Positions 39,320 through 62,162 of a stretch of DNA of 64,000 nucleotides are shown here, in pieces. Each line of letters begins with the position of its first letter. The stretch's first letter is position 1. A program made the position numbers and the translations under genes. This DNA is from Pseudobutyrivibrio sp. (GTDB lineage: Bacteria; Bacillota; Clostridia; Lachnospirales; Lachnospiraceae). The notes under the pieces were generated by a model. It was given only the letters and a program-made list of their open reading frames with translations, did not search any database and was not told where the DNA came from. Location of the stretch: contig JAIKWH010000023.1 in NCBI GenBank assembly GCA_024684955.1, positions 12,624-76,623 of the forward strand. Direction: 5' to 3'.

Positions 39320-40195
39320 TTATTCTTTGACAGCCCCAAGCATCATACCCGACACAAAATGTTTTTGTAGTAGTGGGTATATGATGATGATTGGCACTGT
39401 TGTTACCACTATAGTTGCTAGCTGTATTCCCTTTGATGTGGTAGATAAAACCACAGAACCAAAGGTGTTGTTTGCTGCCGCCATCTGTTGCACGATTATT
39501 TCGTACAGTTTCATCTGCACCGGATAGAGATCGCGGTTTGTGATGTAAAGTTTTGCAGTCATAAAATCATTCCATTGGAACACGCCGTTGAAAAGGGCAA
39601 TTGTTGCCAGGGCTGGCTTTGATAAAGGCATGATGATTGTGAGAAATACTCTCCATGCTCCCGCCCCATCTATCTTGGCTGCCTCCTCCAGGGAAACTGG
39701 TACCTGCCTAAAAAAGTTCATCAAAATTACCACGTCGTAATATGAAAACAATTGAGGCAGTATATATACCAAAAAGTTATTTAGCAATCCTAGTTTTTTC
39801 ATCAGCAAGTAAGTTGGAATCATACCTCCTGAGAAAAAGAGGGTAATGACTCCCATCACTGTGTAGATATTTCTCAATTTCAAATCCCTTTTGCTAAGGC
39901 CATAAGCCACCATGGAGCAAAAGAATACGTGGGTGACCACTCCAAAGACTGTTTTTGCCACTGATATCAAAAAGGCCTTCCAAATGGATGTATCCTTAAA
40001 AACAGCCTTGTAATTATCCAGGGTTACCCCTTTAGGAAAGAAAATAAAATTTCCCTCCGCCAAAGATTTTGCATCGGCAAAAGACTGGGCCACCACATTT
40101 AAAATTGGAATAATGATTATTAGTGTCAGCAGGCTTACAAGAATCACGTTTGTAATATCAAAAATCCTACCTGATGTTAGTTTTTTCCTTTTCAT
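39320..40195 (-). CDS. ABC permease (LplC-like)
   Basis: FSGGMIPTY, SLEEAAKIDGA, QWNDF, YPLLQKHF, GAVKE. Confidence 0.93.
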   Translation of the reverse strand: MKRKKLTSGRIFDITNVILVSLLTLIIIIPILNVVAQSFADAKSLAEGNFIFFPKGVTLDNYKAVFKDTSIWKAFLISVAKTVFGVVTHVFFCSMVAYGLSKRDLKLRNIYTVMGVITLFFSGGMIPTYLLMKKLGLLNNFLVYILPQLFSYYDVVILMNFFRQVPVSLEEAAKIDGAGAWRVFLTIIMPLSKPALATIALFNGVFQWNDFMTAKLYITNRDLYPVQMKLYEIIVQQMAAANNTFGSVVLSTTSKGIQLATIVVTTVPIIIIYPLLQKHFVSGMMLGAVKE

Positions 40196-40209
40196 TGCAA
40201 CCTCCCAAT

Positions 40210-41118
40210 CTACAGCACTGACTCTTCGTTTAGTCGAGATGTCATCCTGTTTGTTATAACCAGTAAGATGACTGAAACAATAGATACTCCTAGTCCAGCT
40301 GCTGTGGCATATGAGAAATCACCCTGGACAAGACCCATTCTATATACATATGAATCTATAACCTCAGCCTTTGGCTGATTTTGAGAATTCATTAAAACCA
40401 ATGTCTGGTCCAGATTTGACTTAAGCAAACTTGAAACTGTCAGGATAAAATTAATACTGATAATATTTCTCATCATAGGCAGGGTGATTGACATAATCTG
40501 TCTAAATCTGCCTGCTCCATCAATTCTTGCCGCCTCGTAGTAGGTAGGATCAATTCCAGCCATGGTAGCCAGGTAAAGGACAGTGCCCCAGCCCGCCTCT
40601 TTCCAGGTATCTGAAAGAGCAGCTATCCACCAATACTTGTCTGCGTCTAAAAGAAAGTTGGTTGGCTTTGCCCCATGGCCAAAAAACATCAAAACCTGAT
40701 TAACCATTCCTGTTGTCGAAAGCCAGTTGATAAGCATTCCCCCCAATATTATCCAAGAGAGGAAATGTGGCAGGTAGGAAATTGTCTGGGCTATTCTCTT
40801 AAACATTCCCTCGTTTAATTCATAAATCATGATGGAGAGAATGATTGGTGTGGTAAATCCAAATAAAAGTTTTAAAAAGCTAATGCCCAAAGTGTTTACC
40901 ACTGATTCCCAAAAATACTTATCCTGTAAAATAATCTTGAAATTCTGCATTCCAACCCAAGGTGCAGTTTCGATTGTGTCCACCACTGTGTAATATTTGA
41001 ATGCTATACTCAGTCCATAAATCGGATAGTAAGAAAAAATCAACATAAATATAATGCCCGGCAAAACCATAGCCTGAAGTGGCAACTGTTTACGAAATTC
41101 TTTAAAGTATAAACCCAT
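40210..41118 (-). CDS. ABC permease (LplB-like)
   Basis: QTISYLPHFLSW, IDPTYYEAARIDGA, VIDSYVY, FSYATAAG. Confidence 0.93.
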   Translation of the reverse strand: MGLYFKEFRKQLPLQAMVLPGIIFMLIFSYYPIYGLSIAFKYYTVVDTIETAPWVGMQNFKIILQDKYFWESVVNTLGISFLKLLFGFTTPIILSIMIYELNEGMFKRIAQTISYLPHFLSWIILGGMLINWLSTTGMVNQVLMFFGHGAKPTNFLLDADKYWWIAALSDTWKEAGWGTVLYLATMAGIDPTYYEAARIDGAGRFRQIMSITLPMMRNIISINFILTVSSLLKSNLDQTLVLMNSQNQPKAEVIDSYVYRMGLVQGDFSYATAAGLGVSIVSVILLVITNRMTSRLNEESVL

Positions 41119-41283
41119 TAATTACCCTCCCAAAACATTTGATGAATTAATCCTAACATCCTAAAAGAGATACTCACAGAGTTTATCTTGTCTTGTAATA
41201 GGTCAATATTGTCTTTTTTTATTATTTACAATAAGATTTACTGGCCTTATAATTTAAGAATAGAAATTGGAGGGAATATTGTC

Positions 41284-42153
41284 ATGGAAGAAATAGAGAG
41301 CATAACCACCGGTACGTATCATGAAAATGACCGAATAACTGACGGATTAGACATATTTTTTTGGGTATTTGACGATGAAAGAAGCTATGTATCTACCCAC
41401 TGGCACTCAGCCATAGAGGTCATGTACATAATGGATGGACAGGTTAATATTGCTATCGATGGAAAGACCACTACATTAGTTAAAGATGACATCTTTCTAG
41501 TGGATTCTGCAGTGGCCCACTCCACAAAATCTTTGCATGGAAATTATGCAGTCCTTATCCAATTCCCATACCCTCTTTTAAAGCGATACATACCGGATAT
41601 CGATAGCCTACGCTTTTCCTTTGACTGCCATTCTGGAGACCCAGAGGAGATGAGAAAGCAGGAGGAATTAAAAAAGATTACCAAGAAAATGAAAAAGGTA
41701 TTCGAGACCAATCCTGATATGGGCATCCTAAAATTTAACAGCCTGGTTTTTGAGTTTCTCTATGTAATGCACAAGAACTTCGCCCGCCAGATGCCTGCTG
41801 CCGAGGGCAAAAAAGAAGAAAAGACCTTTAAGAGAATCACCCAGGTCTTAGACTACCTGGAAAAAAACTATAACAAGCAAATCTCCTTAGAGGAGATTGC
41901 CTCCGTTGCCTGCTTTCAGAAAGAGTACTTTTGTCATTTTTTCAAAAAAAATATGGGCATATCCTACAGCAAGTACCTAAACGAGCTGAGAATATCCCAC
42001 ATTTATAAAGACCTATCGGAGACTAACATCCCCCTAAAAGACCTGCTGGAAATCCATGGTTTCACCAACTACAAACTCTTTCGCTCAATGTTTTACGAGG
42101 AATTCCACACCACACCTGGGGAATATAGAAAAAAGTTGCAAGAAAATAATTAA
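41284..42153 (+). CDS. AraC-family regulator, divergent from the GH30/ABC operon
   Basis: Cupin HWHSAIE; HTH YFCHFFKKNMG...HGFTNYKLF...TPGEYRK; ATG at 41284 behind a GGAGG RBS. Confidence 0.9.
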   Translation: MEEIESITTGTYHENDRITDGLDIFFWVFDDERSYVSTHWHSAIEVMYIMDGQVNIAIDGKTTTLVKDDIFLVDSAVAHSTKSLHGNYAVLIQFPYPLLKRYIPDIDSLRFSFDCHSGDPEEMRKQEELKKITKKMKKVFETNPDMGILKFNSLVFEFLYVMHKNFARQMPAAEGKKEEKTFKRITQVLDYLEKNYNKQISLEEIASVACFQKEYFCHFFKKNMGISYSKYLNELRISHIYKDLSETNIPLKDLLEIHGFTNYKLFRSMFYEEFHTTPGEYRKKLQENN

Positions 42154-42158
42154 AGATT

Positions 42159-42713
42159 TTATGTTTCAAGAATCTGATATTCCAACACATCATCCTTTTT
42201 GATCTGCCAGAATGTTGCCTGGACATATTGGGCCCTGCTTATGTCAAATACATGGGTCCAGGATTCTTTTAGTTCCTTGGCATATTGGGCAGGCTCTAGG
42301 GTGTCCAGTCTGTCTAATTCTTTTTCCCCATCCTCCTCGGAGAGACTAGGGTCAATTATCATTCCGTTCATCATAACAATCTGCCAAAGGTCAAAATCTG
42401 TCAGCACAAATCTGTCCTGGGATATATCCAAGGTCAAGAGAACTTTTTTCTCATTCCGCTTTAAAAACGCAGAACTGTTAGGATCAGGGCATACCCTTTC
42501 TCCCTTCCATGTATGCCAGGCCCAAATCGGATAAGAAACTCCCTCCGGTCTAGGTCCTATCCTGGACTCCATCTGGTCTATGAGCCAGCCATAATAGGGC
42601 TTTAAAGAATCTGATTTTTTTAAATTAAAGGACCTGTCCGGGTCGCAGGCCACCAGTCCCTTTTCATTTAATTCCTCAAACATGGAGAATGGCTGTATTG
42701 TCCAAATCTTCAT
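42159..42713 (-). CDS. DUF3841-like protein
   Basis: MKIWTIQ, YGWLIDQM, YPIWAW, LTDFDLW, VQATFWQIKKDDV. Confidence 0.75.
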   Translation of the reverse strand: MKIWTIQPFSMFEELNEKGLVACDPDRSFNLKKSDSLKPYYGWLIDQMESRIGPRPEGVSYPIWAWHTWKGERVCPDPNSSAFLKRNEKKVLLTLDISQDRFVLTDFDLWQIVMMNGMIIDPSLSEEDGEKELDRLDTLEPAQYAKELKESWTHVFDISRAQYVQATFWQIKKDDVLEYQILET

Positions 42714-42730
42714 TTATATTTCCTCTTGTT

Positions 42731-43564
42731 TTATATTTCAATAATCTTTCCAGTAGCTAGAGGCTCAACAATTCCTGGCAACCTCTTTTCTAATTCTGCC
42801 AGGCCTGGCAGGCCAGTGCAATGTCCTGTAAAAACATGCATTACATTCTCTGCCTTAATTTTGTCAGCCAACTCATCTAACTGGTCAGATGAGAATGTGC
42901 AGGTATCAATGCCATTCTTTCTGCCCTTCATATGGAGGCCACCAAAATAGGCATAAACATTTTTGCCAAAAGCCCTTTTTGCCTCGTCGATAATAGCCCC
43001 GGCTCCACTGTGGGAACAAGAATTAAAAACCACTAGCCCCTGGCTGGTTTCAATTACAAGACTTTGCTCATGAGAAAAATCATCCAGGATGAATTCTCCA
43101 TTTACCTTGCGATACAAGCCTGCTTTTTCAGCAATAGCAGTCAAGTCTGGGGTGGAATGTGGCAAGAGATAAACACCATCATCAATAGGGGTAAGACCCC
43201 TGGCCATCTTGAATCGGCCCTCCATGCGCAGGACATTTTCTGGCACACCTATATAGTGCATACCGCCCTTTGAGGAATAAAATTCTCCATCCATCCCCAT
43301 ATGAGCATAGCATTTTGCATGCTTGTTAATCTCAAAAAACTTTTCAAATCCCCCTGAATGATCATAGTGGCCATGGGAAAGTACTGCATAATCTACCTGG
43401 TCCAAATCGATGCCAAGTTTTTGGGCATTTTTAGCAAACAAATCAGTGCTTCCTGCATCAAGCAAAATCTTTCTATCATGGTGCTGTATAAACAGACTCA
43501 ATCCATGCTCGGCTTCAAAGTTGTCATTAATCGCCGTGTTTTCCACTAAAACTGTAATCTTCAT
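42731..43564 (-). CDS. MBL-fold metallo-hydrolase
   Basis: EHGLS, LLDAG, SHGHYDHSGG, HEQSL, SCSHSG, GGLH, GHCTG. Confidence 0.9.
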   Translation of the reverse strand: MKITVLVENTAINDNFEAEHGLSLFIQHHDRKILLDAGSTDLFAKNAQKLGIDLDQVDYAVLSHGHYDHSGGFEKFFEINKHAKCYAHMGMDGEFYSSKGGMHYIGVPENVLRMEGRFKMARGLTPIDDGVYLLPHSTPDLTAIAEKAGLYRKVNGEFILDDFSHEQSLVIETSQGLVVFNSCSHSGAGAIIDEAKRAFGKNVYAYFGGLHMKGRKNGIDTCTFSSDQLDELADKIKAENVMHVFTGHCTGLPGLAELEKRLPGIVEPLATGKIIEI

Positions 43565-43819
43565 ACTCTGCCCGCCTTCTAATTTTTAACTGAATACAAT
43601 CCTAAATGAATAACCTGAATACTACTGAGATTTTAGATATATTTTTTATTTGAATTATTATATCACTTAATTAAGGGTTTTCTGTTAAAAGAGCGATTTT
43701 TATAACAAAAAAACAGAGGTCTTACAATAGTCTAGCAAGCCGATGATACCTGCTATTTTTCATAAAACCTCTGGTCTTTTTGGTGAATTCAAATTTTTAT
43801 TGTTTTGTGGAAGACACTC

Positions 43820-44755
43820 CTAGTCGTTGAAAAGTGGTGTAGATAAATACCTGTCTCCTGAATCTGGCAACAGGGCAACAATTACCTTACCCTTGTTTTC
43901 TGGACGCTTTGCAAGAATCTCTGCTGCCTTTAAAGCAGCCCCTGATGAAATACCAACCAGGACTCCCTCTGCGCTGGCAAAATCTCTGCCCTCTGTAAAT
44001 GCATCCTCATTCTCAATAGGGATGATTTCATCATAAACAGATGTATTGAGAACATCAGGAATAAATCCTGCACCAATACCCTGAATCTTGTGAGGGCCTG
44101 CCTGGCCTGTAGAAAGCACTGCAGATGTGGCTGGCTCAACAGCAACAATCTTTACATTAGGATTCTTTGACTTGAGATATTCCCCAATGCCAGTGATTGT
44201 TCCCCCTGTACCAACGCCGGCTACAAAGATGTCTACCTTGCCATCTGTCTGCTCCCAAATCTCAGGACCTGTGGTCTGTCTATGAGCCTTTGGATTTGCT
44301 GGGTTAACAAACTGGCCTAAGATAACAGCACCGTCTATTTCATTTTTGAGTTCCTCTGCCTTTGCAATGGCACCCTTCATTCCCTTAGCGCCTTCTGTAA
44401 GTACCAGTTCTGCGCCATATGCCTTTAAAAGTGTACGTCTCTCAACACTCATTGTATCAGGCAGTGTAAGGATTGCTCTGTATCCCTTTGCTGCTGCAAC
44501 AGATGCAAGTCCGATTCCTGTGTTACCACTGGTTGGCTCGATAATTGTTGCTCCTGGCTTGAGGATTCCCTGCTCCTCAGCGTCCTCGATCATTGCCAGT
44601 GCTACACGGTCCTTAACAGATCCTGCTGGATTGAGATACTCTAACTTTGCAAGAACAGTTGCATCTACTATGCCCTTCTTTTTTGAATATCCGTTTAACT
44701 GTAATATAGGTGTCTTTCCGATTAATTCTGATGCGCTCTGTTTAATATCGCTCAT
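43820..44755 (-). CDS. cysK: Cysteine synthase A
   Basis: NPAGSVKDR (PLP lysine), [37 protein letters not shown]. Confidence 0.96.
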
Positions 44756-44854
44756 GTCTTTATCCTCCCTTTTGTCTTTTATGTGATTACGTTATCTCTT
44801 TGATTGAACATATATTATCACTATATTTCTTATTTGAAAAACAAATAAAAGTTA

Positions 44855-44880
44855 TTATCTGTGATAAGCCTGACTTATCA
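44855..44880 (-). promoter_or_regulatory. CYS-box-like LysR (CmbR/CysR) operator upstream of cysK
   Basis: Minus strand reads TGATA-AGTCAGGCT-TATCA-CAGATA, fitting TGATA-N9-TATCA plus a following GATA half-site. Confidence 0.7.
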
Positions 44881-45040
44881 CTCTTGGTATTTTAGCAGCT
44901 CCTCAATGTATGTTTGTTATAGAATATCCATTTAGGCTGGCCATCAGTTCTGCTGTGGCATCCCTATCATTTGATTTGATCAGTTTTTCAAAGTCATAAT
45001 TGCCCAGGGCTTCCTTGCCCCTTCTCGTATACCAGTTTGA
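44878..45040 (-). pseudogene. Remnant of the C-terminus of a LysR-family regulator
   Basis: Minus strand encodes EALGNYDFEKLIKSNDRDATAELMASLNGYSIT, then in another frame TYIEELLKYQE*. This resembles the NDRAT..L...LNGY and YIEEL segments of clostridial MtaR/CmbR-like LysR proteins. No HTH or start codon. Confidence 0.6.
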
Positions 45041-45144
45041 GATTATTTTTGCGTGTCACCTACCCACTAGGTTACTATGTTTTAGATTGTAAACTATGCC
45101 ACGGGTTTTGGAAAATAGTAGTATGTTATTTCTAGTTATAAATA

Positions 45145-45170
45145 GGGCTTATAGCAAAAACTATAAGCCC
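45145..45170. promoter_or_regulatory. Perfect 10-bp inverted repeat (MET-box-like operator, or terminator of the marR-HD operon)
   Basis: GGGCTTATAG-CAAAAA-CTATAAGCCC. Confidence 0.45.
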
Positions 45171-45212
45171 TTATGACAAATTATTATTTACTCTGTTCTC
45201 GGCCTAATACTA

Positions 45213-45474
45213 ATTCTCGGCTGCCTCCGGCAGATAATCGACAGTGTCCTCTATAGTTTTTCTGCCTCCGGCATTTTACAACTGGCCTTTTGCGGCTTTA
45301 TCATCCGCCTCCGGCAGATAATTCTCCTTGACTATCACGTTTTATCTGCCCCGCGCTCCTGCCCAAAACATATTCTCGGCTATCCGGCAGATAATCGACG
45401 GTGTCCTCTATAGTTTTTCTGCCTCCGGCCTTTTATAGTTGGCCTTTTGCAGCTTTATCATCCGCCTCCAGCAG
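45213..45474. repeat. Dyad cluster 1: about 104-bp direct duplication built from GGCAGATAA-N20-TTWTCTGCC units
   Basis: Copies at 45213-45317 and 45372-45474; dyads at 45229-45266, 45313-45350 and 45386-45423, with degenerate ones at 45270-45309 and 45427-45466. Confidence 0.85.
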
Positions 45475-46020
45475 TTTTTGAATTGTGTCTCTACGGATTT
45501 CCTCTCTCAATCCTGTCATGAAATCTGAGAACCCAACTCTGTCGTCTGCATATGTTAAATTAAAAGATTTTTCATGCTCGGTCCATGTAGATAGGTCCGA
45601 GAAATTATGCTGAATTAAAGCCTCTTGACTATCTATGGCCTTATATATTTTGGCCTCAAGAGTTTTCCTCTCCTCCATCTCCTGATAGAGTGCTCGCATC
45701 TCCTCGGCCTTCTTTTCAGGGAGAGAATCCACCCACTCAGAAAGAAGATTTAACTCGATATCCTCATGCTGCTGATTCTTCGCAAAGGTAGGAATATCCC
45801 CAGTAAAACATTCTCCCAAATCATGGATGATACACATTTGGATGACCTTATTCATATCTGCTTCAGGGAATTCGTCCTTTATCATAAACGCAATCAAAGT
45901 CATCATCCATGTGTGCTCTGCCACACTTTCATGGCGGCCCTTTTCAGTATAGCAATGCCTTGTTGTATCCTTTAGCCTAACTGCAACCTCTAAAGCATCT
46001 AACAATTCTCTTGGTTCCAT
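45433..46020 (-). CDS. HD-domain hydrolase (YfbR/5'-deoxynucleotidase-like)
   Basis: LKDTTRH, ESVAEHTW, IIHDLGECFTGDIP, EAKIYKAID. Confidence 0.88.
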   Translation of the reverse strand: MEPRELLDALEVAVRLKDTTRHCYTEKGRHESVAEHTWMMTLIAFMIKDEFPEADMNKVIQMCIIHDLGECFTGDIPTFAKNQQHEDIELNLLSEWVDSLPEKKAEEMRALYQEMEERKTLEAKIYKAIDSQEALIQHNFSDLSTWTEHEKSFNLTYADDRVGFSDFMTGLREEIRRDTIQKLLEADDKAAKGQL

Positions 46021-46490
46021 TATTGCCCCTCCCTTTGTGTTTCTTCTAGTTCTTCAACCCATTCATTCAGATATTCATTATATGAATTCATAAAGTCAGT
46101 TATAAAATCCAACTCTTTTTTAGAGTACCGGCTCAAAAAGTCCATATCTTTATCCTCCCATATGTTATGCCGATACTCATGGAGCTTGTATATCTCTTTT
46201 CCTTTGCCTGTCAGTTTATAGAAAATCTTTTGCTTATTGTCATTCGCTTGAAAGGATTCAATATAATTTTCAAGTTGTAATTTTTTAATAATCTTGCTAA
46301 TTGCTCCCTTTGTCATAGACAATTTATCTGCTATTACTGTGACATTGGGCATATCTAAATCCCCTATTGCCACAATCGTATGGACCTCAGAATATCCCAA
46401 ACCCTTTAGTTTAGGATTCTCTAATAGTCTGTCTAAAATTTCATGTTTTTCTAACCATTCTCCAAATGGTCTAAGGATACTTTTATCCAT
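46020..46490 (-). CDS. MarR-family transcriptional regulator
   Basis: SEVHTIVAIG, NVTVIADKLSMTKGAISKIIKKL, KIFYKLTGKG; start MDKSI behind an AGGGGG RBS; stop overlaps the start of the HD gene. Confidence 0.88.
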   Translation of the reverse strand: MDKSILRPFGEWLEKHEILDRLLENPKLKGLGYSEVHTIVAIGDLDMPNVTVIADKLSMTKGAISKIIKKLQLENYIESFQANDNKQKIFYKLTGKGKEIYKLHEYRHNIWEDKDMDFLSRYSKKELDFITDFMNSYNEYLNEWVEELEETQREGQ

Positions 46491-46612
46491 TTTCCCCCTT
46501 TGTAACAAAATCAACACTTAGAATATGTAACTTGCTTTATTTGCTATATAAATTGATATTATAAAAACAAGGGTAATCATATAATTCAATTTGATTCTTT
46601 AATTAAGATAGC

Positions 46613-46642
46613 AAAAACTTGTTTCCTTGTAAACTAGTTTTT
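46613..46642. promoter_or_regulatory. Candidate MarR operator (imperfect palindrome)
   Basis: AAAAACTTGTTTCCTTGTAAACTAGTTTTT, about 120 bp upstream of the marR start. Confidence 0.5.
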
Positions 46643-46671
46643 GTTTCTCTATTACAGACCATAAACCCCAT

Positions 46672-46843
46672 AAGAATTGTCCATAAAAGTTGGTAAGAAT
46701 TCCACATAAAAGCCAGTAAAGATTCCACATAGAGGCCGGCAAGAATTCCACATAAAGCCAGTAAAGATTCCACATAGAGGCTGGCAAGAATTCCACATAA
46801 AGCCAGTAAAGATTCCACATAGAGGCCGGCAAGAATTCCACAT
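46672..46843. repeat. Tandem repeat with a 45-bp unit made of 22/23-bp subunits
   Basis: AAGAATTCCACAT starts at 46695, 46741, 46786 and 46831; core ATTCCACAT at 46699, 46722, 46745, 46767, 46790, 46812 and 46835. Confidence 0.95.
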
Positions 46844-46903
46844 GAATGCCTGTGCCACATCATGCGTCCTCAGTAGTAAAACACTTTCTATTGTTTAGAT
46901 TTC

Positions 46904-47698
46904 TCAAATGAATATTCCTTCAATCATCCTTCTAATTGCTGTCACATCAATTGGATTCTTTGATGTTTCAAAGGTAAAAATAAAATTGGAGCCCATTACA
47001 TATCCGCTATTTTCATAATCCCTTATTTTTTTAAATGCATTATTTCTATACTCAATGTCATCCATCATCCCAAAATGCTCCCATATTATCTCTTTTTTAT
47101 CTTTCACTCTTAATACTGTAAAATCTGGATGAGTTATAATATTTCCTTTCAACTTTACAGGCCTTTCATATAAATATGGGACCTCGTATTCTGCCAGTAA
47201 ATCAGCTAGTATTATCTCCGTTTTCGAACGAACTCTTTCTCCTTTTTTAGTATAAAACTCTGGCGCATTTTCTCTAAATGGCACCCCGGCATATTCCTGC
47301 TTATGCCATTTTAGAATATACTCTTCATCAGATATAACAGGAACTTGGATTAACACTTTTTTAGCCTCAATCATTTTTTCTGCAGTCCGCTCCCACGGCA
47401 ATTTACCACTAATCTCCTTTTCAAAATCTTTCAACTTTTGTAATTCTATTTCCACCTCTTTCTTTAGCAAATTGTTATATTCCTTTTGCGCCAATAGGGA
47501 TGCCTTTTCCATATCCTTTTGCTTAATATACTTACCTTTTAAATCTTTTTCATTCTCCCTTACAAAATATTGGAAAGAATTCCTATGCCTATAGGCTCTC
47601 AATATTCCCTTTGGTTGATGCTTTTCCTCTTTAGTTAGACGGTTTTTTAATTGTAATAATAATTCTTCGTAATCCCTTAACTCCTTAAATAACTCCAT
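46904..47698 (-). CDS. Uncharacterised PD-(D/E)XK-superfamily nuclease-like protein
   Basis: N-terminal coiled coil and basic hairpin, then TKKGERVRSKTEIILADLL...YLYERP...HPDFTV...WEHFGMMD...Y...KI..Y. Start MELFK behind an AAGGGA RBS. Confidence 0.75.
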   Translation of the reverse strand: MELFKELRDYEELLLQLKNRLTKEEKHQPKGILRAYRHRNSFQYFVRENEKDLKGKYIKQKDMEKASLLAQKEYNNLLKKEVEIELQKLKDFEKEISGKLPWERTAEKMIEAKKVLIQVPVISDEEYILKWHKQEYAGVPFRENAPEFYTKKGERVRSKTEIILADLLAEYEVPYLYERPVKLKGNIITHPDFTVLRVKDKKEIIWEHFGMMDDIEYRNNAFKKIRDYENSGYVMGSNFIFTFETSKNPIDVTAIRRMIEGIFI

Positions 47699-47732
47699 TG
47701 ATTTCCCTTTCAAACTAATACCATTTATTATT

Positions 47733-48230
47733 TGCAATAAAAACATTTAAGATTTCTTATTTTTGCTGTCACTACTTCCATTACTGATTATTCCTCCTGC
47801 TCGCCGGCAGATAATGTGGCATAATCCGTCTTGTTTTGCTGCCATATTATCTCCGCTATTACTAATTCAAATACTTCGGCAGATAATGTGGCGCATTCCG
47901 TCTTATTTTGCTGCCATATTATCTCCGCTATTACTAATTCAAATGCTTCCGGCAGATAATCTAGCATCTCCATAGGGAGTTTGCTGTTAGAACAACTCTT
48001 AGACCATATCCAATCGAAGAAAAGATCCTTCAATCGACAGCAAATATAAAATAACTAATTGTAATTATCTGCCACTATGCCCATCATAGTCTGGGTTTTA
48101 AATAATCCGGCAGATATATGCAATAGATATAGTCTATTTTCTGCCGCTAATCTTTATTTCTAAATGAAACTTGGGAAATTTACAGAAAAATAACAGATAG
48201 TGAGAACTTTTTCTGCCGCTGCCGAGAATA
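47733..48230. repeat. Dyad cluster 2: phased array (period about 72-73 bp) of 9-bp inverted-repeat dyads with variable cores
   Basis: Units start at 47733 (degenerate), 47806, 47878, 47951, 48036, 48109 and 48181; each is GGCAGATAA-like / N19-20 / TTWKCTGCC-like. Confidence 0.85.
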
Positions 48231-48473
48231 AGCAGCCAATTTATTATCTCTAAAAAATGGGCCTCTGACTTTTGTGTGTCAATAGTATCTATGCAATACA
48301 AAACCCAAGCAGACTCAAACATTATTGAATGTTTGCCTACTTTATTTATAACGTAAAAAAGAACAATAAAAATTTATGACACTATATCACGATACTCAGT
48401 TTTGGTCAATACAAAGTTGATGCCATAACAATTAATTCTATCATGTATACTGGCAGACTCTCAGATTAAAAAT

Positions 48474-48508
48474 ATAACCTCTATCTCACATCACGAGATA
48501 GAGGTTAT
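48474..48508 (-). terminator. Terminator after the GNAT gene
   Basis: ATAACCTCTATCTC/GAGATAGAGGTTAT, 14-bp stem. Confidence 0.85.
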
Positions 48509-48538
48509 TTGTGCAAAATCGAGCGTGTTCTCCCCACT

Positions 48539-49018
48539 CTATAAACTCTTTATCATTACTAATACCTTAGAAGTCTTTTCACCCCATGTTAAAAAAGTCT
48601 CTTTCTGCCCAAGAAAACCCAGCGCTTCCCAAAATGGAATGACGTTAGTCTCATAATCGTTTACAACGTCAATGCGAATAGATTTTACCCCCTCATCGGC
48701 AAGCTTTCTTTCAAGATATAAGTATAAATTTGTCCCTATCCCAGCATGTTGCATTGATGAATCTAACATTAAGAGCGATAAATAAGCATCGTGTGACGGT
48801 AGAATCATATAGTCGAGTATACCTATAGGTTCATTGTCGACACATATTAGGTTTGAAGAAAAACCATGTTCCTCCATCTCCTTAACTTCATTAACTATAA
48901 AAGATTTGTCTACAAAAGTTTTGCCCAAATGATGTAAAAGGAATTCCTTGTTAGAATTATAGACTTTTAATGCTTGCTCATAATTAGAAATATTAATCTT
49001 TTTTTCAGTAAATAACAT
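48539..49018 (-). CDS. GNAT-family N-acetyltransferase
   Basis: LSLLML...QHAGIGT motif A, PFWEALGF motif B; start MLFTE behind a GGAGG RBS. Confidence 0.85.
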   Translation of the reverse strand: MLFTEKKINISNYEQALKVYNSNKEFLLHHLGKTFVDKSFIVNEVKEMEEHGFSSNLICVDNEPIGILDYMILPSHDAYLSLLMLDSSMQHAGIGTNLYLYLERKLADEGVKSIRIDVVNDYETNVIPFWEALGFLGQKETFLTWGEKTSKVLVMIKSL

Positions 49019-49119
49019 GTTGCCTCCAATTAAACAGCTCCTTTTACATGAAATAATACAATATGCCATTAGATATTCCAATTGGTTGTTGGCTTAATTT
49101 TAATTGAAATATATAGTCT

Positions 49120-49203
49120 AAAAAGGATGTAGCCATTCTGACCACATCCATCATAAATCTAAATTATCATAGAAGTTCCATATTTACAGAAAAAAATTCA
49201 AAG
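49120..49203 (-). repeat. 84-bp dispersed element, copy A (promoter-like segment plus terminator-like hairpin)
   Basis: 76/84 identical to the reverse complement of 62079-62162, with an identical 44-bp core. Confidence 0.9.
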
Positions 49204-49230
49204 TCTCATTAATTCATTGCTAATTTATAG

Positions 49231-49263
49231 AAATCCCTTTGGATTATTATCCAAAGGGATTTT
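49231..49263 (-). terminator. Terminator after the TIR gene
   Basis: AAATCCCTTTGGAT/ATCCAAAGGGATTT stem. Confidence 0.85.
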
Positions 49264-49277
49264 ATCTACAACCTATC

Positions 49278-52262
49278 CTACAATCTATACTTCATTCTTT
49301 CCTCGTTAGTGAGGACCTTATCTCCGAATCTTTCTTTTTCTTCCTGTAAAAGATCCTGGAGGTTTTTCTTTTTAAAGGTATAGACTGCGCTATTTTTTAT
49401 ACTAATGACTCTTTCCTTTCCAGGGATGTAGAGTTGTCCGTACTCAGCTCTGCCTAGGACTCCATTTGTACCTAAATCAAAGAAATACATCTGGAAGGAG
49501 TTGTAAAAGCAGATTTGATTGTTGGCTTCATCATATATTACGTCGCTCAGGTCATTCAGTTGAACATCAGATATAAATGAAAACGCCTTTATGTCTCTAT
49601 CATATATTCTAAAATAGAGGTCTGTGCCCTGGAGATAAACTTTTGTATCGTCGGCAGAAAATTTTATCAAACTGTTTGAGTTTCCAAAGAATGGCAATTC
49701 ATCTGTAATCTCAAATGTGGCGGTATCCACCAGTCTTAACACGCCGTCGGTACAAACTACAGCTATAATGTTTCCATCATTGTTTGAAGAAATATTCAGC
49801 ACCTGGTAGTCTGCCAGAATAGGCTGGTCTTCTTCCGTTTCCACGTCGGACCTGTGGAGCTTGTTTTCTCCGTCAATATAGTAAACAGCATTGCCGTCGC
49901 CAGCCACTATAATGTTTGAGATTATGCCCTCTGTCTCGTTGATGGCTACATTCTTTTTAGTTTCAAAATTAAAGAGTGTGTATTCTCTACCGTTTTCCTG
50001 AACTAAATACTTTCCATTTTCAGAAATGTAACTGTCCGCATGCTGGCTCTCTTCTCCAACTCTAGCCTCAGTGACTTTCTTAGTCTTCAAATCGTAATAG
50101 GCTACGTGACGATTATTTTTTACTGCTGCAATTGTGGAATTATCAACATATAAAACCTGTCTATATGCCGCATCCTCTACCTCAAATGTGTCACGCAATT
50201 TTCCAGAATCTGTATCATAAATATAATATTCCACATTTTGCGACGAAGAATCAGCCTGGCCTGACAGCAGGTATGTGCTTTCATCTGGGCTGGCGATGGC
50301 TGTAAAATAGTAGCGGCTAGGCAAATCAGTAGTAGATATTACAGAATTGTCCTTGCTTTCCCTCATGATCCTTACTTCTGGAGATCTGTAACTCCTTATC
50401 ACTAAAACGCCATTTGAAATAGTATAATCAATGAGGCTTAAATCAGTATTGATAGCAAGGCTGGAATAATCTGTGTTTCTAATAGAACTATATCTGTTAA
50501 TTTTGCCGTCATAGGTTCCAACAAAAAACAGTTCATTGTCCAATCCGATTCTGATACGCTCAACATAACTGTCAAAAGACAGTTCTTTTATCAATTCTCC
50601 AGTGTCCAGGTCTAAAACTCTTACAGTTTTACATGCGGAAAAAATCACCTCATTATGGACTTCATCTCCCACATTAAAACTTCTGGTCCTAATTTGAGAA
50701 TAACTGGTATCCTGAATATTTGAATTGTATACATATTCATTGCTCCAGATAGTCTCGCCTGTCTCCAGACTATATTTCTCCACATACATAGGACAATCTG
50801 TAAAAGAGAGCAGGGCATCGTTATCTACCAGATTTGCTACTAGGCAATTATCTACTGAGAAATACATATCCAAAATACTATTAGCCTTAATTTGAATAGA
50901 TTTACTTTCTCTTTTTTCCATATCAACCACTGTTATATAAGGAATGTCCTCTTCATAAAGGGTAGAATGGGATAGGGCAATATATCTGCCATCTGGAGAT
51001 ACCACCATGTCACGAGAGAAAGAATTGGTTCCCTCATTTGCCACTGTTTCAAGCAAATCTCCACTACTAGCGTCCATTATGTAGGTCATGTTTCCGTTTG
51101 TGGCAATGACATATCTACCATAAAAATCTACATATCCAAAAGTAAAAGTAGATTCTGCGTCATACCTGTACAATTCTTTCCCTGTCTCGTCCAAGCCGCA
51201 AACATATTTGTCTGTTACCACAACAATAGTATCTCCGGCAAAGCCTTCAGAAAGGATGCTATTTACAAAACCTCCAGAGTATTCTGGAGTTATTTCAAAC
51301 AATTTTTTTCCAGAATCCAAATCCCAATAATACAGGTTGTCTGAGTTGTCATATGAAACCATTTTTGTTCCATCAGACTTAACCACAAAGTCCTCTACCG
51401 ACAAATTGTGATTCAATATCTTATCATTGCTAAAGTTAAATCCAATGTCATAGGAGCCCAAAGCAGCAGAAAGGGCATTCATAGAATCAGCCACAAAAGG
51501 CCTATCCACTCCCTCTCTTGGCAATCCCTCCAGAGCCACTACGGCTGCAGTTGCTCTATCGCCATTCTCCAGAATATCCAAAGAAGTGGCTGCCAAAACC
51601 TTGGATTCATTTCTTAATTTGTCCTGATAGTTTTGATTAATCTGATTCAGGTTGTATGCTGTGTAAACACCAAAAGCTAATGCTACAACTGCAACACCAG
51701 TCGCAATGGCAAAATTTCTCCTAAGGGCGCGCTCTCTATGTCTCTGCTTCAAATCATCATAATCTACATGCAAAATAGACGCCGCAAGACGCAAGGTCTC
51801 ACTCTTTATTTTCTTATTTCTCTCTTTATTGCTAGTAGCGCGGACATCTGCTGCCAGTGGCTCCACAGGATTGCCATTTTCATCCTTTAGCAACTGTGGT
51901 GGGAATGAATCCTCAGGCTCTCCCTCCACCAATACAGCCAGGACATTCTGCCTGCCATGCATAGAAATGAAGGTATCAATCTCCTTCATGACCCAGTATG
52001 ATTCCTTGGTTTGAGGGGAACATATTACAACCAGAAAATCCGACTCAGAAAGAGCATAATCAATATTGCTGCCCAGGTCTGACCCTATAGGCAACTCCTC
52101 TTGATCTCTAAATACTCTGTTGATTCTCTTTCTTCCAGTTTCCTCCTGGATTTTTTTAGGAATCTTGACTGTCTCAAGTTCCTTGTGCACTCTTTTTGCT
52201 ACGTACATGTCTGTAGGCAGATGTCTGTAGCTTATAAATGCATCGTACTTCATTCCTTCCAT
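49278..52262 (-). CDS. TIR-domain protein with one TM helix and a large beta-propeller (WD40/PQQ-like) region
   Basis: YDAFISYRH, VFRDQEEL, SDFLVVICSP...SYWVMKEIDTF; TM FAIATGVAVVALAFGVY; repeated propeller blades (YWDLDSGK, VSPDGRYIAL, LDLDTGE, FSADDTKVY). Confidence 0.88.
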   Translation of the reverse strand: MEGMKYDAFISYRHLPTDMYVAKRVHKELETVKIPKKIQEETGRKRINRVFRDQEELPIGSDLGSNIDYALSESDFLVVICSPQTKESYWVMKEIDTFISMHGRQNVLAVLVEGEPEDSFPPQLLKDENGNPVEPLAADVRATSNKERNKKIKSETLRLAASILHVDYDDLKQRHRERALRRNFAIATGVAVVALAFGVYTAYNLNQINQNYQDKLRNESKVLAATSLDILENGDRATAAVVALEGLPREGVDRPFVADSMNALSAALGSYDIGFNFSNDKILNHNLSVEDFVVKSDGTKMVSYDNSDNLYYWDLDSGKKLFEITPEYSGGFVNSILSEGFAGDTIVVVTDKYVCGLDETGKELYRYDAESTFTFGYVDFYGRYVIATNGNMTYIMDASSGDLLETVANEGTNSFSRDMVVSPDGRYIALSHSTLYEEDIPYITVVDMEKRESKSIQIKANSILDMYFSVDNCLVANLVDNDALLSFTDCPMYVEKYSLETGETIWSNEYVYNSNIQDTSYSQIRTRSFNVGDEVHNEVIFSACKTVRVLDLDTGELIKELSFDSYVERIRIGLDNELFFVGTYDGKINRYSSIRNTDYSSLAINTDLSLIDYTISNGVLVIRSYRSPEVRIMRESKDNSVISTTDLPSRYYFTAIASPDESTYLLSGQADSSSQNVEYYIYDTDSGKLRDTFEVEDAAYRQVLYVDNSTIAAVKNNRHVAYYDLKTKKVTEARVGEESQHADSYISENGKYLVQENGREYTLFNFETKKNVAINETEGIISNIIVAGDGNAVYYIDGENKLHRSDVETEEDQPILADYQVLNISSNNDGNIIAVVCTDGVLRLVDTATFEITDELPFFGNSNSLIKFSADDTKVYLQGTDLYFRIYDRDIKAFSFISDVQLNDLSDVIYDEANNQICFYNSFQMYFFDLGTNGVLGRAEYGQLYIPGKERVISIKNSAVYTFKKKNLQDLLQEEKERFGDKVLTNEERMKYRL

Positions 52263-52308
52263 AACTTGTCTCCAAAAATAATAATTTCATATATTAAAAA
52301 CCTGTCCG

Positions 52309-53151
52309 CTAAACAGATTTAATATGATTTCCAACGATTTCTGACACCTCTGAAATGGTAGTAAAGGTGCTGCCCGGGAATTCTGTAAGAATTCTCTTGA
52401 GTTCATGTATTTCTGCTCTAGTGACAACTACATAGATGATATCTTTAGAATTATTTGAAATCAGTCCTTCACCTCTCATAAAGGTAACAGTTCTGCCCAA
52501 TTCCCTGTTAATCCTATCGGCCAAATTCCTGCCGTCATCTGTAATTATCATTACAGACTTGGCACTTTCAAATCCAATTTCAACAATGTCTATTACCTTT
52601 GATGATATGAAATACATCAAAAGGGAATACATACCCCTGTCCAAGTCAAAAACAATGCCTGCCACAGCAAAGATAAAAACATTGAAAAGGAGAATAATCT
52701 GACCTGTAGAAACAGATAAGTTTCTATTTAAAAATACTGCAATAACCTCTGTGCCATCCAAGCAGCCTCCGGCTCTTAACACAAGGCCTACACCTACGCC
52801 AAGGAGCATTCCCCCATAGGTGATTGCAAGAATAATCTGGTCGGTAGCATTCTCAATAGGCTCAAAGACTCCTGTAAAAATCGAGAATAGGGCTATGGCA
52901 TAAACTATTCTTGCCACATATGAGATTCCAAGTCTTTTGTAAGCCAAAAAAATAAAGGGAATATTTATGATGAAAATCAGAAGTCCCAGATGAATTGGCA
53001 CGAAATGGGCAACAATCATACTTATACCAGTTACGCCACCGTCAAAAATTTTGTTAGGAACCAAAAATTCCTCAATGGCAAAAGCTGCAATAATTGCACC
53101 AGCAGTAAGTTCAAGAATTGATATGAATATTTGCTTGTTCTTCTGATTCAT
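52309..53151 (-). CDS. YitT-family membrane protein (DUF161/DUF2179)
   Basis: DGGVTGIS, INIPF, GGCLDGTEVIA, GRTVTFMRGEG, VVTRAEI. Confidence 0.9.
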   Translation of the reverse strand: MNQKNKQIFISILELTAGAIIAAFAIEEFLVPNKIFDGGVTGISMIVAHFVPIHLGLLIFIINIPFIFLAYKRLGISYVARIVYAIALFSIFTGVFEPIENATDQIILAITYGGMLLGVGVGLVLRAGGCLDGTEVIAVFLNRNLSVSTGQIILLFNVFIFAVAGIVFDLDRGMYSLLMYFISSKVIDIVEIGFESAKSVMIITDDGRNLADRINRELGRTVTFMRGEGLISNNSKDIIYVVVTRAEIHELKRILTEFPGSTFTTISEVSEIVGNHIKSV

Positions 53152-53233
53152 AAGCTCCCCTTAAAACAATATATTCTCTATGGTACTATTTTTTCTCATT
53201 AAGTTCCAGCATTTAAATCTCTCTTTCTTGCCT

Positions 53234-53266
53234 AAAAAAAGGGACTGCAATTTCTCGCAGTCCCTT
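53234..53266 (-). terminator. Terminator after the GH43 gene
   Basis: AAGGGACTGC/GCAGTCCCTT with a T-run on the minus strand. Confidence 0.85.
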
Positions 53267-53283
53267 AAAATCACCTAAACAAT

Positions 53284-56200
53284 TTACTTGCTCACTTTTA
53301 CAGTTATAGTCTTTGTGACATTTCCGACTCTCACTGTTACCTTTGAACTCTTGCCAGATTTAAGTCCTGTAATCTTTCCATATCTATCAACACTTACATT
53401 TCTGTTGCTAGATCTGAGAGATACATTACCTGAATCTGTACATCCATAAGGGAGGCTGGCTGTAATTTTGCATGAATCATTTTTCTTTAACTCAATTACA
53501 AATCCTTCCTCTGTCTCCTCCATTTCCTGTCCGTTAGCCAAGAGAACTAGGTCCTCTGCCTTTAGAGGGTTGGTTACTACCACTCTGGTCAGGCCAGAAG
53601 CCTTGAAAGGTATTCCAAATATTCCTCTAGCCCTTACAGTCCAAAGCACATAGTGTACTCCAGTCTCCTCACCAGCGGTGATCTGATAGTATCCAGGTCT
53701 GCCCCCTGCAGTAGTGGATGCAATGTCTCCATCGCAATCTGTAAATGTCACCTTGCCGCCTGTAGCAAGCAATCCTCCTCTTACTCTGACACTAGCAGTC
53801 TCCCCTGCTGCAATTTCTACAGTGTCAGGAGCATCTACATAGGTCAAGAAATCAGAATAGGTCCGTACATTCTTAGAATCTATGGTCACATTCTTTTCTA
53901 CAGTAACTGTAAATTCTCTGATGATTTCTCCATCAAGGCTAGCTGTAATAGTAACAGGTTTGCTTGTTGCCCTAAGGGCCTTTACCAGTCCCTTTTCTAC
54001 TGATACATATCTGCTTCTGCTAGAAGACCACTTGATTTGTGGGTTTACCTCTAGAGAATTCATAGGATAGATTCTTCTGATCTCACCCTCTTGCATAGCA
54101 AATTCCTGCTCAGTGGTGATATCTATTGCTGGCTCCTCAGGCTCTACAGGCTCAGGGTTAGGGCTTGTAGCCTCCTCCAGATTTGCAATCTCAATGTAGT
54201 CTAGGGCTGCCTCTGCCTTGTTTCCTACCCCTGATACGAGAATTGTGTTAGCGCCTTCTATAAGGTCAACATCCAATTCATATCCAAACCAGTTGTCTAC
54301 GCAAAGCTGGTTTCCTGCTGCAGCATTAAAGTTGTATACTGCCTTCTCAAAAGTCTCATCATTAACCTGCACCAAAAGGGCTGCATCATTATTTCCTGTT
54401 GATGCACCCAGGTATAATCTGTATTTTCCAGATGCTGGTGCCTCTACAGTAAATTCTGCCTTTGTATTCTTGTCTACCAGTTTGTATAGGCAGGCATTGT
54501 TTGAAGAATTGTATGTGGTAGTAGGGCTAACTCCTGTAAGGATTGCGTCCTCAGCCTCGTACCTGTCATAGTCTGTCTGCTTTGTGCCAGTTGGTGCATT
54601 TACCAGGTCTGTAAATTCTGCTGAAGGTCCCATAAATGGGCTGCCGTCCTCGTTCCAATATGCCTGCTGGATTCTGACACCACGACCATTCCAGCCGCCA
54701 CCAGCAAATCTTGTAGCATGGAATACCAGGTAGTCCTCCTTGCCGTCTGGAGAACCAACAAAGCAAGCGTGACCTGTTGAGAATGTTGTGTTGTCATTCT
54801 TTTCAAATATTGGCTCTGCTGCCTTGCTCCAAGATGAAGCCTCCATTGGGTCTGCTCCGGCCCTCAGGGTCAGGCATCCCAGGCAATATGTGTCAGACCA
54901 AGATCCGCTGGCTGAGTATACAATGCTTGCTACTCCAGTTGGAGAAACTGCAATCTGAGGTCCCTCATTGATTGTAGGTCTCTCGTTTATTTCCCAGGCG
55001 TATTCTGGTCTTGAGAGTTCTACCCTGTCTCCAGAGATGGTCCAAGGGTTTTCCATCTTTGCGATGTAAAGTCTCTGCTCACCGTCAACAAAACCGTCCC
55101 AGCCTGACCAGATAGCATATAGGTTGCCGCCTACTTCAAGAACAGTCTGGTCAATTGCCCAGCGGTCTGTTGCTGGTGACATCTTGCCCATGAATGTATA
55201 TTCTCCTTGAGCATCCTCTGTCTTTGCCTCTAATGCGTACATCCTGTGGGCAGAACCTGCACCTGCTGTGTAGTATATGTACCACTTGCCCTGGATGAAA
55301 TGTAACTCTGGCGCCCAAAGTTCTGCTGATGGCTCATCGCCTGATGGCATGTAGACGCATACAGGTTCTACCTGTCCGATTCGATCTAATTCTGCAGACT
55401 TGGTAATGTAAATGCCCTTGTTGCTCCTGTCCATAAAGATGTAATAGTAATATCCATTCTGGTAGGTAACAAATGGGTCTGCTCCATAATTTACCAGATG
55501 TGATTCAAAAGAATCTGGTCCAACAAAACGGATGGTGTAAGACTTCATATAATTTAAGTCTTTTGTGCATGTCAGTTTTACATAGGCCTCAGGTCTATCC
55601 TTGCTGCCTTGCACTATCTGTGCAACAAAACTCTTGTCTGTTCCCTCTGCATATTCTACAGAAATCTCTGGAAGAGCATCCAGGTCGTCAACCCTTACCT
55701 GGCATATTTCCTTTGCTGCATCAAAATTCTCCATAGGCTGTCCATCTGCATAGAGGCTAAATTCTGGCTCCTCCAGCAAGTGGAGCATGATGTAGTCCAA
55801 CTCTGAGAAACTGTTGTCTCTGCCTGAGTGAGAGAATGTAATTGTATTCTCACCCTCATTTAATGCAACCTCTATTCTGTAGAGGGACCATACATCCCAG
55901 TTGCTTGACTTGTCATAGTTGATAATCTGTGCATTTGCCTCGTCCCCATTTATCCAATATCTGTGAGAAGAATTAGGGAAGGCATTTCTGTCTCCATCTG
56001 CTGCAACATCGATTGCATAGGTACCTGCTTCAGGCACATTTAATTTGAGTGTAACTGTGGAATCCATATCATCTATGTATCCAACTTTTACACCGCCAGA
56101 CGCCGCTCCATTTGTAGCTGTTCTCGCCTTGCCAGTCAGGACTCCTGTCTCTGCCTCAATCTTTTCAGCAACAGAGGTCATCTCCTTTGCATTTAATTCT

Positions 56201-62078: not shown

Positions 62079-62162
62079 CTTTGAAACTTTTTCTGTAAAT
62101 ATGGAACTTCTATGATAATTTAGATTTATGAAGGGTGTAGCCAGATTGGCCACATCCTTTTT
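62079..62162 (+). repeat. 84-bp dispersed element, copy B
   Basis: Inverted copy of 49120-49203; TGATAAT followed by the hairpin GGGTGTAGCCA-GAT-TGGCCACATCC and a T-run. Confidence 0.9.

Follow-up and report, generated by a model that had tools for sequence, protein, structure and literature searches.

A family of predicted nucleases whose genes mostly lie beside helically phased arrays of inverted sites

The stretch of DNA analysed here (the window) comprises 64,000 nucleotides of Pseudobutyrivibrio sp. (contig JAIKWH010000023.1) and contains the gene for P0001, a 264-aa protein with a predicted nuclease domain, which is preceded by an array of seven dyads, each consisting of two inverted 9-bp arms around a core of 19–20 bp. 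Similar arrays accompany the homologous genes of other genomes, and their units are spaced by multiples of the helical repeat of DNA. We lean slightly towards the reading that these arrays are phased platforms bound by a cognate nuclease, which would cut and spread them. Its first part, namely that the nuclease-fold protein binds the dyads cognately as double-stranded DNA, appears highly probable, and if such binding is granted, spread or recombination as its purpose is moderately probable. An earlier note on this DNA had left two options, hairpins that guide or regulate the nuclease, or phased protein-binding dyads following a REP/RAYT-like logic with a different enzyme. The latter is supported by the 10.50-bp spacing period, arms that track the protein, a predicted dimer and dispersed gene-less arrays, while the former is not supported, as there is no arm compensation and no G.U bias in one-sided changes, and the cores drift and have no target matches.

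Dyad arrays in the window and beside homologous genes

The main array (47733..48217, no strand assigned) has the half-site GGCAG(A/C)(T/A)AA, and its dyads of 37–38 bp start at 47733, 47806, 47878, 47951, 48036, 48109 and 48181. A re-scan of the sequence returned the same seven positions, spacings (73, 72, 73, 85, 73 and 72 bp, about 7 and 8 helical turns) and core lengths (20/20/20/20/20/19/19 bp) as the earlier note; the linkers measure 35, 34, 35, 47, 35 and 35 bp. Inverted arms are indeed present in all seven units, but their pairing is imperfect, with only 5–7 of 9 Watson–Crick pairs and a weak unit at 47733, since two variants of the half-site occur on either side. The units at 47806 and 47878 are recent duplicates, as had been proposed (72-nt duplication, 93% identity). 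A second array of three dyads with the same arms had been overlooked (45229..45423, no strand assigned; units at 45229, 45313 and 45386, spacings 84 and 73); it starts 9 bp past the stop codon of an HD-domain gene. In addition, part of the interval 46672..48230 assigned earlier to the system is a separate tandem repeat (46686–46846) of 45 bp, in which two units of 22/23 bp alternate and which follows closely on the nuclease stop codon; no repeat of this type was noticed at the homologous loci. The two arrays bracket the nuclease gene, the tandem repeat, a MarR gene and the HD gene. A degenerate dyad pattern, written from these window units, gave 8 matches in the window, every one within the two arrays, and 9 in the 2.26-Mb genome, compared with a mean of 0.005 in 200 shuffles of the window. 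The best sigma70-like site, TTGACC-17-TATAGT with TG, is a consensus match only; it lies on the minus strand at 48381..48409, pointing into the array and the gene, with a terminator-like hairpin (48474–48508) ahead of it. Promoter-like sites number 23 against 15.5 ± 3.9 in shuffles.

An array detector (at least 3 units, score at least 75) was applied to 130 loci, 50 from the genus and the best 80 from species genomes, which include many close kin. As the earlier note had envisaged, dyads at fixed spacings recur at homologues: an array lies upstream in 98 of the 123 evaluable loci and in 0 of 123 shuffles, downstream in 17 of 124 regions, and on either side in 107 of the 130 loci. A simpler scan of a further 21 loci found upstream arrays in 14, with unchanged spacing classes. 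Six loci (L009, L021, L057, L083, L113 and L125) carry an array only past the stop codon. Between loci, the start codon lies anywhere from 33 to over 300 bp from the last dyad. Sequence conservation is maximal 10–19 bp from the dyad centre; the sequences of cores and linkers vary freely, whereas their lengths are fixed. The arms are specific to each paralogue and the arm types go with the protein clades, in agreement with the earlier suggestion that arms co-vary with the protein tree. Many arrays contain recent tandem duplications (e.g., L005, L024 and L064). Separately, a shared promoter-like sequence with a short leader hairpin stands ahead of arrays with different arms in L011, L023, L030, L026 and L027.

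The 436 spacings cluster at 42, 52–54, 62–65, 72–75, 83–86, 94–96 and 104–106 bp. The best period over 168 per-locus distinct values is 10.50 bp at phase zero (R 0.855), where 500 uniform draws reached an R of at most 0.245, although this test overstates the significance owing to the kin among the loci. Of 63 spacing differences within loci, 59 deviate by no more than 2 bp from n × 10.5 (38% expected), and single arrays with mixed spacings are phased as well (73, 52, 63 and 53, 53, 94, 63). The helical repeat of B-DNA is 10.5 bp. A de novo scan of the own genome for dyad arrays, which missed the main array with its arms too degenerate for the method, returned 10 arrays, all phased within 2.5 bp.

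Homologues of P0001 occur in 17 of 18 same-genus genomes, with up to 11 matches each that are mostly 30–40% identical, and in none of 12 genomes of other families. A profile search was positive in 21 of 151 genomes of the order, and in species genomes it yielded at least 588 loci, with Lachnospiraceae, Butyrivibrio, Roseburia, Eubacterium, Fibrobacter and Treponema among the best 80. Clustering at 50% identity, with a threshold of E ≤ 1e-30, divides the family into 3,509 clusters. Searches of viral contigs with the single protein or the alignment returned no relative. In a tree built by a quick method, the protein nearest to P0001 is that of L051 (55% identical), which shares the CAGATA arm core and the 72–73 period.

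The predicted nuclease and its arm reader

P0001 is encoded on the minus strand (46904..47698, reading from 47698 to 46904), with a GGGA element 6–9 nt ahead of the ATG. Its AlphaFold model (predicted local distance difference test, pLDDT, 95; predicted template modelling score, pTM, 0.67) runs from a helix through a small beta-sheet and a long helix to an alpha/beta domain, that is, an N-terminal coiled coil with an inserted beta-sheet followed by a C-terminal domain of predicted restriction-endonuclease fold (residues 147–264; 46907..47260, minus strand). In VIA-align this domain matched I-Bth0305I (Z 8.5, root-mean-square deviation 2.9, 90 aligned residues), Bax1 (Z 8.1) and TnsA (Z 8.0), the matches spanning deviations of 2.9–3.5 and 90–115 aligned residues; the Z-scores are middling and the identities 9–17%. 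Foldseek ranked DrdV, Bax1, R2 and TnsA at the top, yet none at E ≤ 0.001. All of the 124 family proteins compared have S158, K159, E161, E178, E207, H208 and G210, and 123 of the 124 have D192. With motif roles assigned after the PD-(D/E)XK scheme, the third nuclease motif of the family reads E-H-x-G, not E-x-K. The domain is common to the C-terminus of the PADLOC candidate PDC-S68 (E 4e-25; 90 of 90 members match), the HEAT_CxxC_PD-DEXK model is matched by 50 of the 90 family members, and plasmid-borne AAA/RecD-like helicases also end in this domain. The structure model, the fold matches and the PADLOC PD-DEXK models thus lend moderate support to the PD-(D/E)XK restriction-endonuclease fold that had been read from the motif order, and metal-dependent DNA cleavage is predicted. 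No Pfam family matched P0001 and none is common to 90 members, a PDB sequence search returned nothing meaningful, and the ESM Atlas gave unnamed clusters only, the nearest named cluster having DUF6788 on 14% of its members. One of the fused helicases (plasmid NZ_CP115765.1, 1213–4821; L381) is an AAA ATPase directly 3' of a type ISP restriction-modification gene.

A homodimer of P0001 is supported by prediction. Its score was 0.65, compared with 0.00 for the best of 3 controls. In a benchmark, 20 of 30 solved homodimers but only 1 of 23 monomers attained the mark; runs shared at least 83% of their contacts, with pLDDT of at least 82. The predicted contacts (residue 6 with 6, 78 with 101–105, and 70 with 113–116) suggest an antiparallel coiled coil that places the two beta-sheets at opposite ends. 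A rough estimate from the helix length, rather than from coordinates, gives a span of about 100 angstrom, which approximates the 29 bp that separate the arm centres.

The N-terminal module (residues 18–85) is modelled at pLDDT 91, and its fold search gave a best Z of 3.6 and no Foldseek E below 1. We presume a likeness to the three-stranded arm-binding beta-sheets of AP2 and integrase proteins, which the fold search did not confirm. For the covariation analysis 87 arms were registered, 7 loci (outgroup or doubtful) were taken off the list and 81 were left, with 66 representatives below 70% identity. With the other protein regions corrected for, arm similarity is correlated with similarity of the beta-sheet (partial r 0.095) and of the coil (0.128) beyond all 300 permutations, while the value for the nuclease domain (0.048) is not beyond permutations. 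The columns that best track arm bases, H38 and F45, both lie in the beta-sheet module: His38 goes with arm G in 23 of 24 cases and Ser/Cys/Asn/Lys/Gly38 with A in 28 of 32, and Phe45 goes with arm T in 13 of 15, Tyr45 in 2 of 49. Two loci look chimeric. L007 and L008 combine an L002-like nuclease domain with the N-terminal module and arm of another clade; the domain of L007 is 79% identical to that of L002, and L007 and L002 both follow coaBC. Together these patterns are suggestive of the beta-sheet module (residues 28–60; 47519..47617, minus strand) as the likely reader of the 9-bp arm.

Gene-less arrays, proposed mechanism and alternatives

Arrays also occur away from the gene. Dyads of the TACAGT arm type number 15 in G014, 22 in G005 and 11 in G009 (controls 1, 1 and 2), and are few in G012 (2) and G007 (1). 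Most of them form clusters that keep the spacing pattern and have no nuclease gene beside them; these clusters are intergenic, with co-directional genes on both sides and in many cases a stop codon no more than 60 bp away, and the small accessory genes 3' of them, typed by eye, recur in other orders in other genomes. Array copies resemble one another only as far as the outer dyads (identities of 72.6% over 237 bp, 77.5% over 271 and 67.5% over 292). At one and the same gene gap, G005 and G045 have a TACAGT array, and G012, G010 and G017 have a TACGG array unrelated to it. In G005, G012 and G010 a nuclease is encoded whose arm clade matches the array in that gap. Arrays with the same arms bracket the gene and cargo in the window, L031 and L051, and do so in inverted orientation in L072.

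Further gene-less arrays were observed. In L143 (about 2830–3332) a GCATCC and then a TACAGT array are stacked at one site with no nuclease gene. The motif RATAATACACACTAGG, noticed by eye in the long linker of gene-less arrays with different arms (L143, L147, L151 and L158), may be a promoter element. The own genome holds a third phased dyad family, with TTCCG arms, a 41-bp span, spacings of 73/82/93 and 43 dyads, which are intergenic and often at contig ends (contigs C1, C4, C31, C32, C33, C39, C41, C52, C67 and C70 of G000). Exact TTCCG matches number 30 in this genome and 0–1 in each of 120 other family genomes; the pattern search took one genome per genus, outside the own genus. No matching nuclease gene was found in the 86%-complete own-genome assembly, and it is from geometry that we infer a link of the TTCCG arrays with the nuclease–array system.

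We propose that a homodimer binds the inverted 9-bp sites, with each beta-sheet module reading one arm and the antiparallel coiled coil spanning the roughly 29 bp between arm centres. Several dimers would load on one face of the helix, and only the multi-site complex would be active, a requirement that would spare stray single sites (no methylase was seen near the gene). This phased complex would nick or cut DNA, and whole arrays would be copied to new intergenic places; the least certain step is that cleavage drives array copying and recombination between arrays. Gene and arrays would together constitute a self-maintaining element with autonomous (array and gene) and non-autonomous (array only) forms.

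The upstream neighbours of the family genes bear on an alternative in which the element serves defence. Among 77 of 119 called upstream genes, scanned at E ≤ 1e-25 after short or redundant ones were left out, there are 12 comEC, 8 guaA, 2 coaBC and 1 dprA; comEC being the commonest and dprA occurring once, a link to natural transformation is possible. A toxic nuclease might be held inactive on its own array, which would act as a DNA antitoxin, and be released by phage or incoming DNA. The comEC and dprA neighbours agree with such sequestration, as do the high diversity of the family with its many paralogues per genome and the sharing of the nuclease domain with PDC-S68, HEAT_CxxC_PD-DEXK and plasmid helicases, including one next to a type ISP restriction gene. 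We nevertheless consider it unlikely, given that the copying of whole arrays to gene-less sites with their arms kept stays unexplained, that no relative turned up in viral contigs, and that the PADLOC matches cover only the nuclease domain of much larger proteins.

Quite unlikely, too, is pure transcriptional control, where the arrays would be operators on which phased dimers wrap DNA and repress their own gene and the accessory genes, the nuclease domain being incidental. Helical phasing would fit repressor arrays equally well; moreover, most arrays have a promoter-like site on one side and the start codon on the other, gene-less arrays stand ahead of small accessory genes, and four of these share the promoter-like motif despite different arms. 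Against operators speak the near-complete invariance of the catalytic-type residues, the six loci with an array only past the stop codon, the variable distance between the last dyad and the start codon, and the absence of an evident common function among the array-adjacent genes.

A guide or regulatory RNA, in which the transcribed array would form hairpins whose 20-nt loops direct the nuclease, is very unlikely. Arrays are mostly 5' of the gene behind a promoter-like site, so they are probably co-transcribed, and among 470 unique units from 98 loci the total of G.U pairs is slightly above permutation (326 versus 307 ± 7, p 0.009), as is a crude count of double deviations (26 versus 15 expected, 18 compensated). 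The same units nevertheless show no selection for pairing that we could recognize: permuting right arms within a locus gives more pairing (4075 ± 16 versus 4033 observed) and more compensated changes (116 versus 98), one-sided changes yield G.U 111 times and A.C 115 times, and inner-core pairing is at chance (1057 of 4094 versus 1064 ± 19 permuted). The spacings follow the B-DNA repeat. The cores themselves drift. When 18 selected pairs of related loci are compared, the identity of cores at the same position is 0.70–0.96 at protein identities of at least 92%, 0.37–0.67 at 78–84% and 0.24–0.39 at 66% or below, while arm identity remains 0.76–1.0 in 16 of the 18 pairs; the cores decay in place by point mutation without turnover of units. 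The earlier note had also suggested searching the cores for phage and host targets, and here the matches stayed at chance level, with 15–17 of 20 positions in the own genome, like shuffles, and E ≥ 2 for the window array against 50,697 phage records; an Rfam search matched no family. Cores as acquired spacers were accordingly rejected as well, in view of their drift in place and the lack of phage or own-genome target matches. The most improbable alternative is that an ordinary selfish endonuclease leaves functionless arrays as scars of slippage or repair at its sites, which would suit the frequent recent tandem duplications, whereas slippage explains neither arms that persist while cores decay to background nor linker lengths that change only by whole helical turns.

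Besides the excess of G.U pairs and of double deviations, several further results weigh against phased platforms that are cut and spread by their cognate nuclease. No array was detected on either side in 23 of 130 loci, some of them through short flanks. After removal of kinship the covariation is not significant: in an underpowered test, H38 retains 6 independent pairs (3.6 concordant, 0.1 opposite, median p 0.125) and F45 retains 3, and P0001 is itself an exception to the F45 rule. The array is physically linked to the N-terminal module, and therefore their co-transfer needs no recognition. Two other arm types are nearly confined to the gene locus in G014 (8 of 9 and 5 of 6), and the window arm type is limited to two arrays in the own genome; spread is therefore no general feature. 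An internal stop codon interrupts the TACAGT nuclease gene of G005. Neither an empty site nor a target duplication was seen. Gene-less arrays could also be left-overs of insertions of array and gene that lost the gene.

Genomic surroundings, known systems and significance

Between the two arrays of the window lie two genes of possible cargo, assigned by Pfam scan, for a MarR-family regulator (46020..46517, minus strand) and an HD-domain protein (45433..46020, minus strand). The earlier statement that no methyltransferase, cas or transposase gene is near the nuclease agrees with our survey of the window open reading frames (ORFs) at 40000–56000, inspected by eye, and of four neighbours compared with Pfam. 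No methyltransferase is present among these four neighbours or the 77 scanned upstream genes, downstream genes not being scanned, and no TnsB, TnsC or TnsD/TniQ among the window ORFs or the same 77 genes, no genome-wide search having been made. A comparison of 34 genus genomes for a syntenic empty site of the window matched only cysK well and contained no close strain. Beyond the arrays, a non-coding repeat of about 90 bp with a hairpin, resembling a miniature inverted-repeat transposable element, occurs at 49106–49200 and 62082–62162, and copies with 85–93% identity lie beside varied small genes in many genomes of the genus. The segment 48436–48530 is 77–85% like sequence that overlaps the end of a 414-aa ORF in three loci, which we take to resemble an IS256-type transposase. 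This segment and the 90-bp repeat bracket a GNAT gene (48539–49081) in the window and other genes in other genomes. The 994-aa protein encoded at 49278–52262 combines a TIR domain at its N-terminus with a hydrophobic segment and beta-propeller repeats, and possibly has a signalling or defence role.

Among described systems, REPIN/RAYT offers the closest parallel. There, as described in PMC3337134, the cognate nuclease gene has inverted repeat doublets on its flanks, each with a variable spacer; the groups are enzyme-specific, non-autonomous copies are intergenic, RAYTs carry HUH and Y motifs, and the spacers form hairpins. The present system likewise has paralogue-specific inverted sites flanking the cognate gene and intergenic copies, which are clear for the TACAGT type, with weak dispersal for two other arm types and the window arm. 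Unlike RAYTs, the protein has a predicted PD-(D/E)XK fold, not that of an HUH/Y1 transposase; unlike REPINs, the cores are unpaired, the dyads hardly vary in span, their phasing follows a period of 10.5 bp, copying involves whole arrays, and many paralogues are possible per genome. Our best reading, by analogy, is that the nuclease–array system would work most like REPIN/RAYT with another enzyme and substrate.

CRISPR arrays, which have identical direct repeats and acquired spacers, also alternate conserved elements with variable sequence beside a nuclease gene. The dyads differ from these in their 9-bp inverted half-sites, drifting cores and lack of target matches, and no cas ORF was seen at 40000–56000. 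TIGR-Tas, as described in PMC12045711, shares this alternation of conserved and variable elements next to a nuclease gene as well as a coiled-coil dimer, predicted in our case, but its 36-nt dual-spacer units are missing here, where the periods run from 42 to 105 bp in 10.5-bp steps. No Nop domain matched in Pfam or in the fold lists, whose silence does not exclude one, and unlike in CRISPR and TIGR-Tas no spacer turnover is seen in arrays of the P0001 family.

In predicted fold, residues 147–264 resemble I-Bth0305I, TnsA, Bax1 and the R2 endonuclease. I-Bth0305I joins a separate DNA-binding module to its nuclease domain. In contrast to these enzymes, the protein has neither an intron nor a TnsB/C/D or helicase partner that could be seen, and its presumed recognition sites are arrayed beside its own gene. 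PDC-S68 and the helicase-fused nucleases share the C-terminal domain at 31–44% identity over 63–121 residues but are about 1,200 aa long and do not match the N-terminal module of P0001. Integrons and pdif-type modules have cassettes bracketed by repeated sites, in integrons with a tyrosine recombinase and one attC site per cassette. Here, too, repeated sites bracket strings of small co-directional accessory genes whose order varies between genomes; the enzyme fold differs, however, no tyrosine recombinase was seen, gaps between cargo genes are mostly without arrays, and some array pairs are inverted. No description of the family was found in the literature, where most subscription journals lay outside coverage and closed preprint supplements could list clusters, and it is not described in the passages or section 2.3 of bioRxiv 10.64898/2026.10.21.760802. 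No known family fitted, and the nuclease–array family appears to be undescribed, with a function that is predicted.

The spacing statistics indicate that a repeat array beside a nuclease gene need not be a guide RNA, as they separate the two cases. The likely DNA sites of a large family of hypothetical proteins become readable from neighbouring sequence, providing many natural pairs of protein and site with which a recognition code could be tested in a 264-aa scaffold, possibly that of a nuclease gated by site number and helical phase. The variable strings of accessory genes in Lachnospiraceae of the rumen and gut may also have their source in these arrays, a proposal that can be tested. More speculatively, and in our view doubtful at present, the system may be a new class of gene-capture and shuffling machine of gut Bacillota, Fibrobacter and Treponema, in which a dimeric nuclease with a small, exchangeable reader would need its own phased array to become active. 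If so, the arrays would be recombination platforms that insert, bracket and exchange accessory-gene strings behind core genes, among them comEC and guaA. A restriction-endonuclease fold would then serve an integron-like function, its natural specificities would run into the thousands, and its residue-to-base code could be read.

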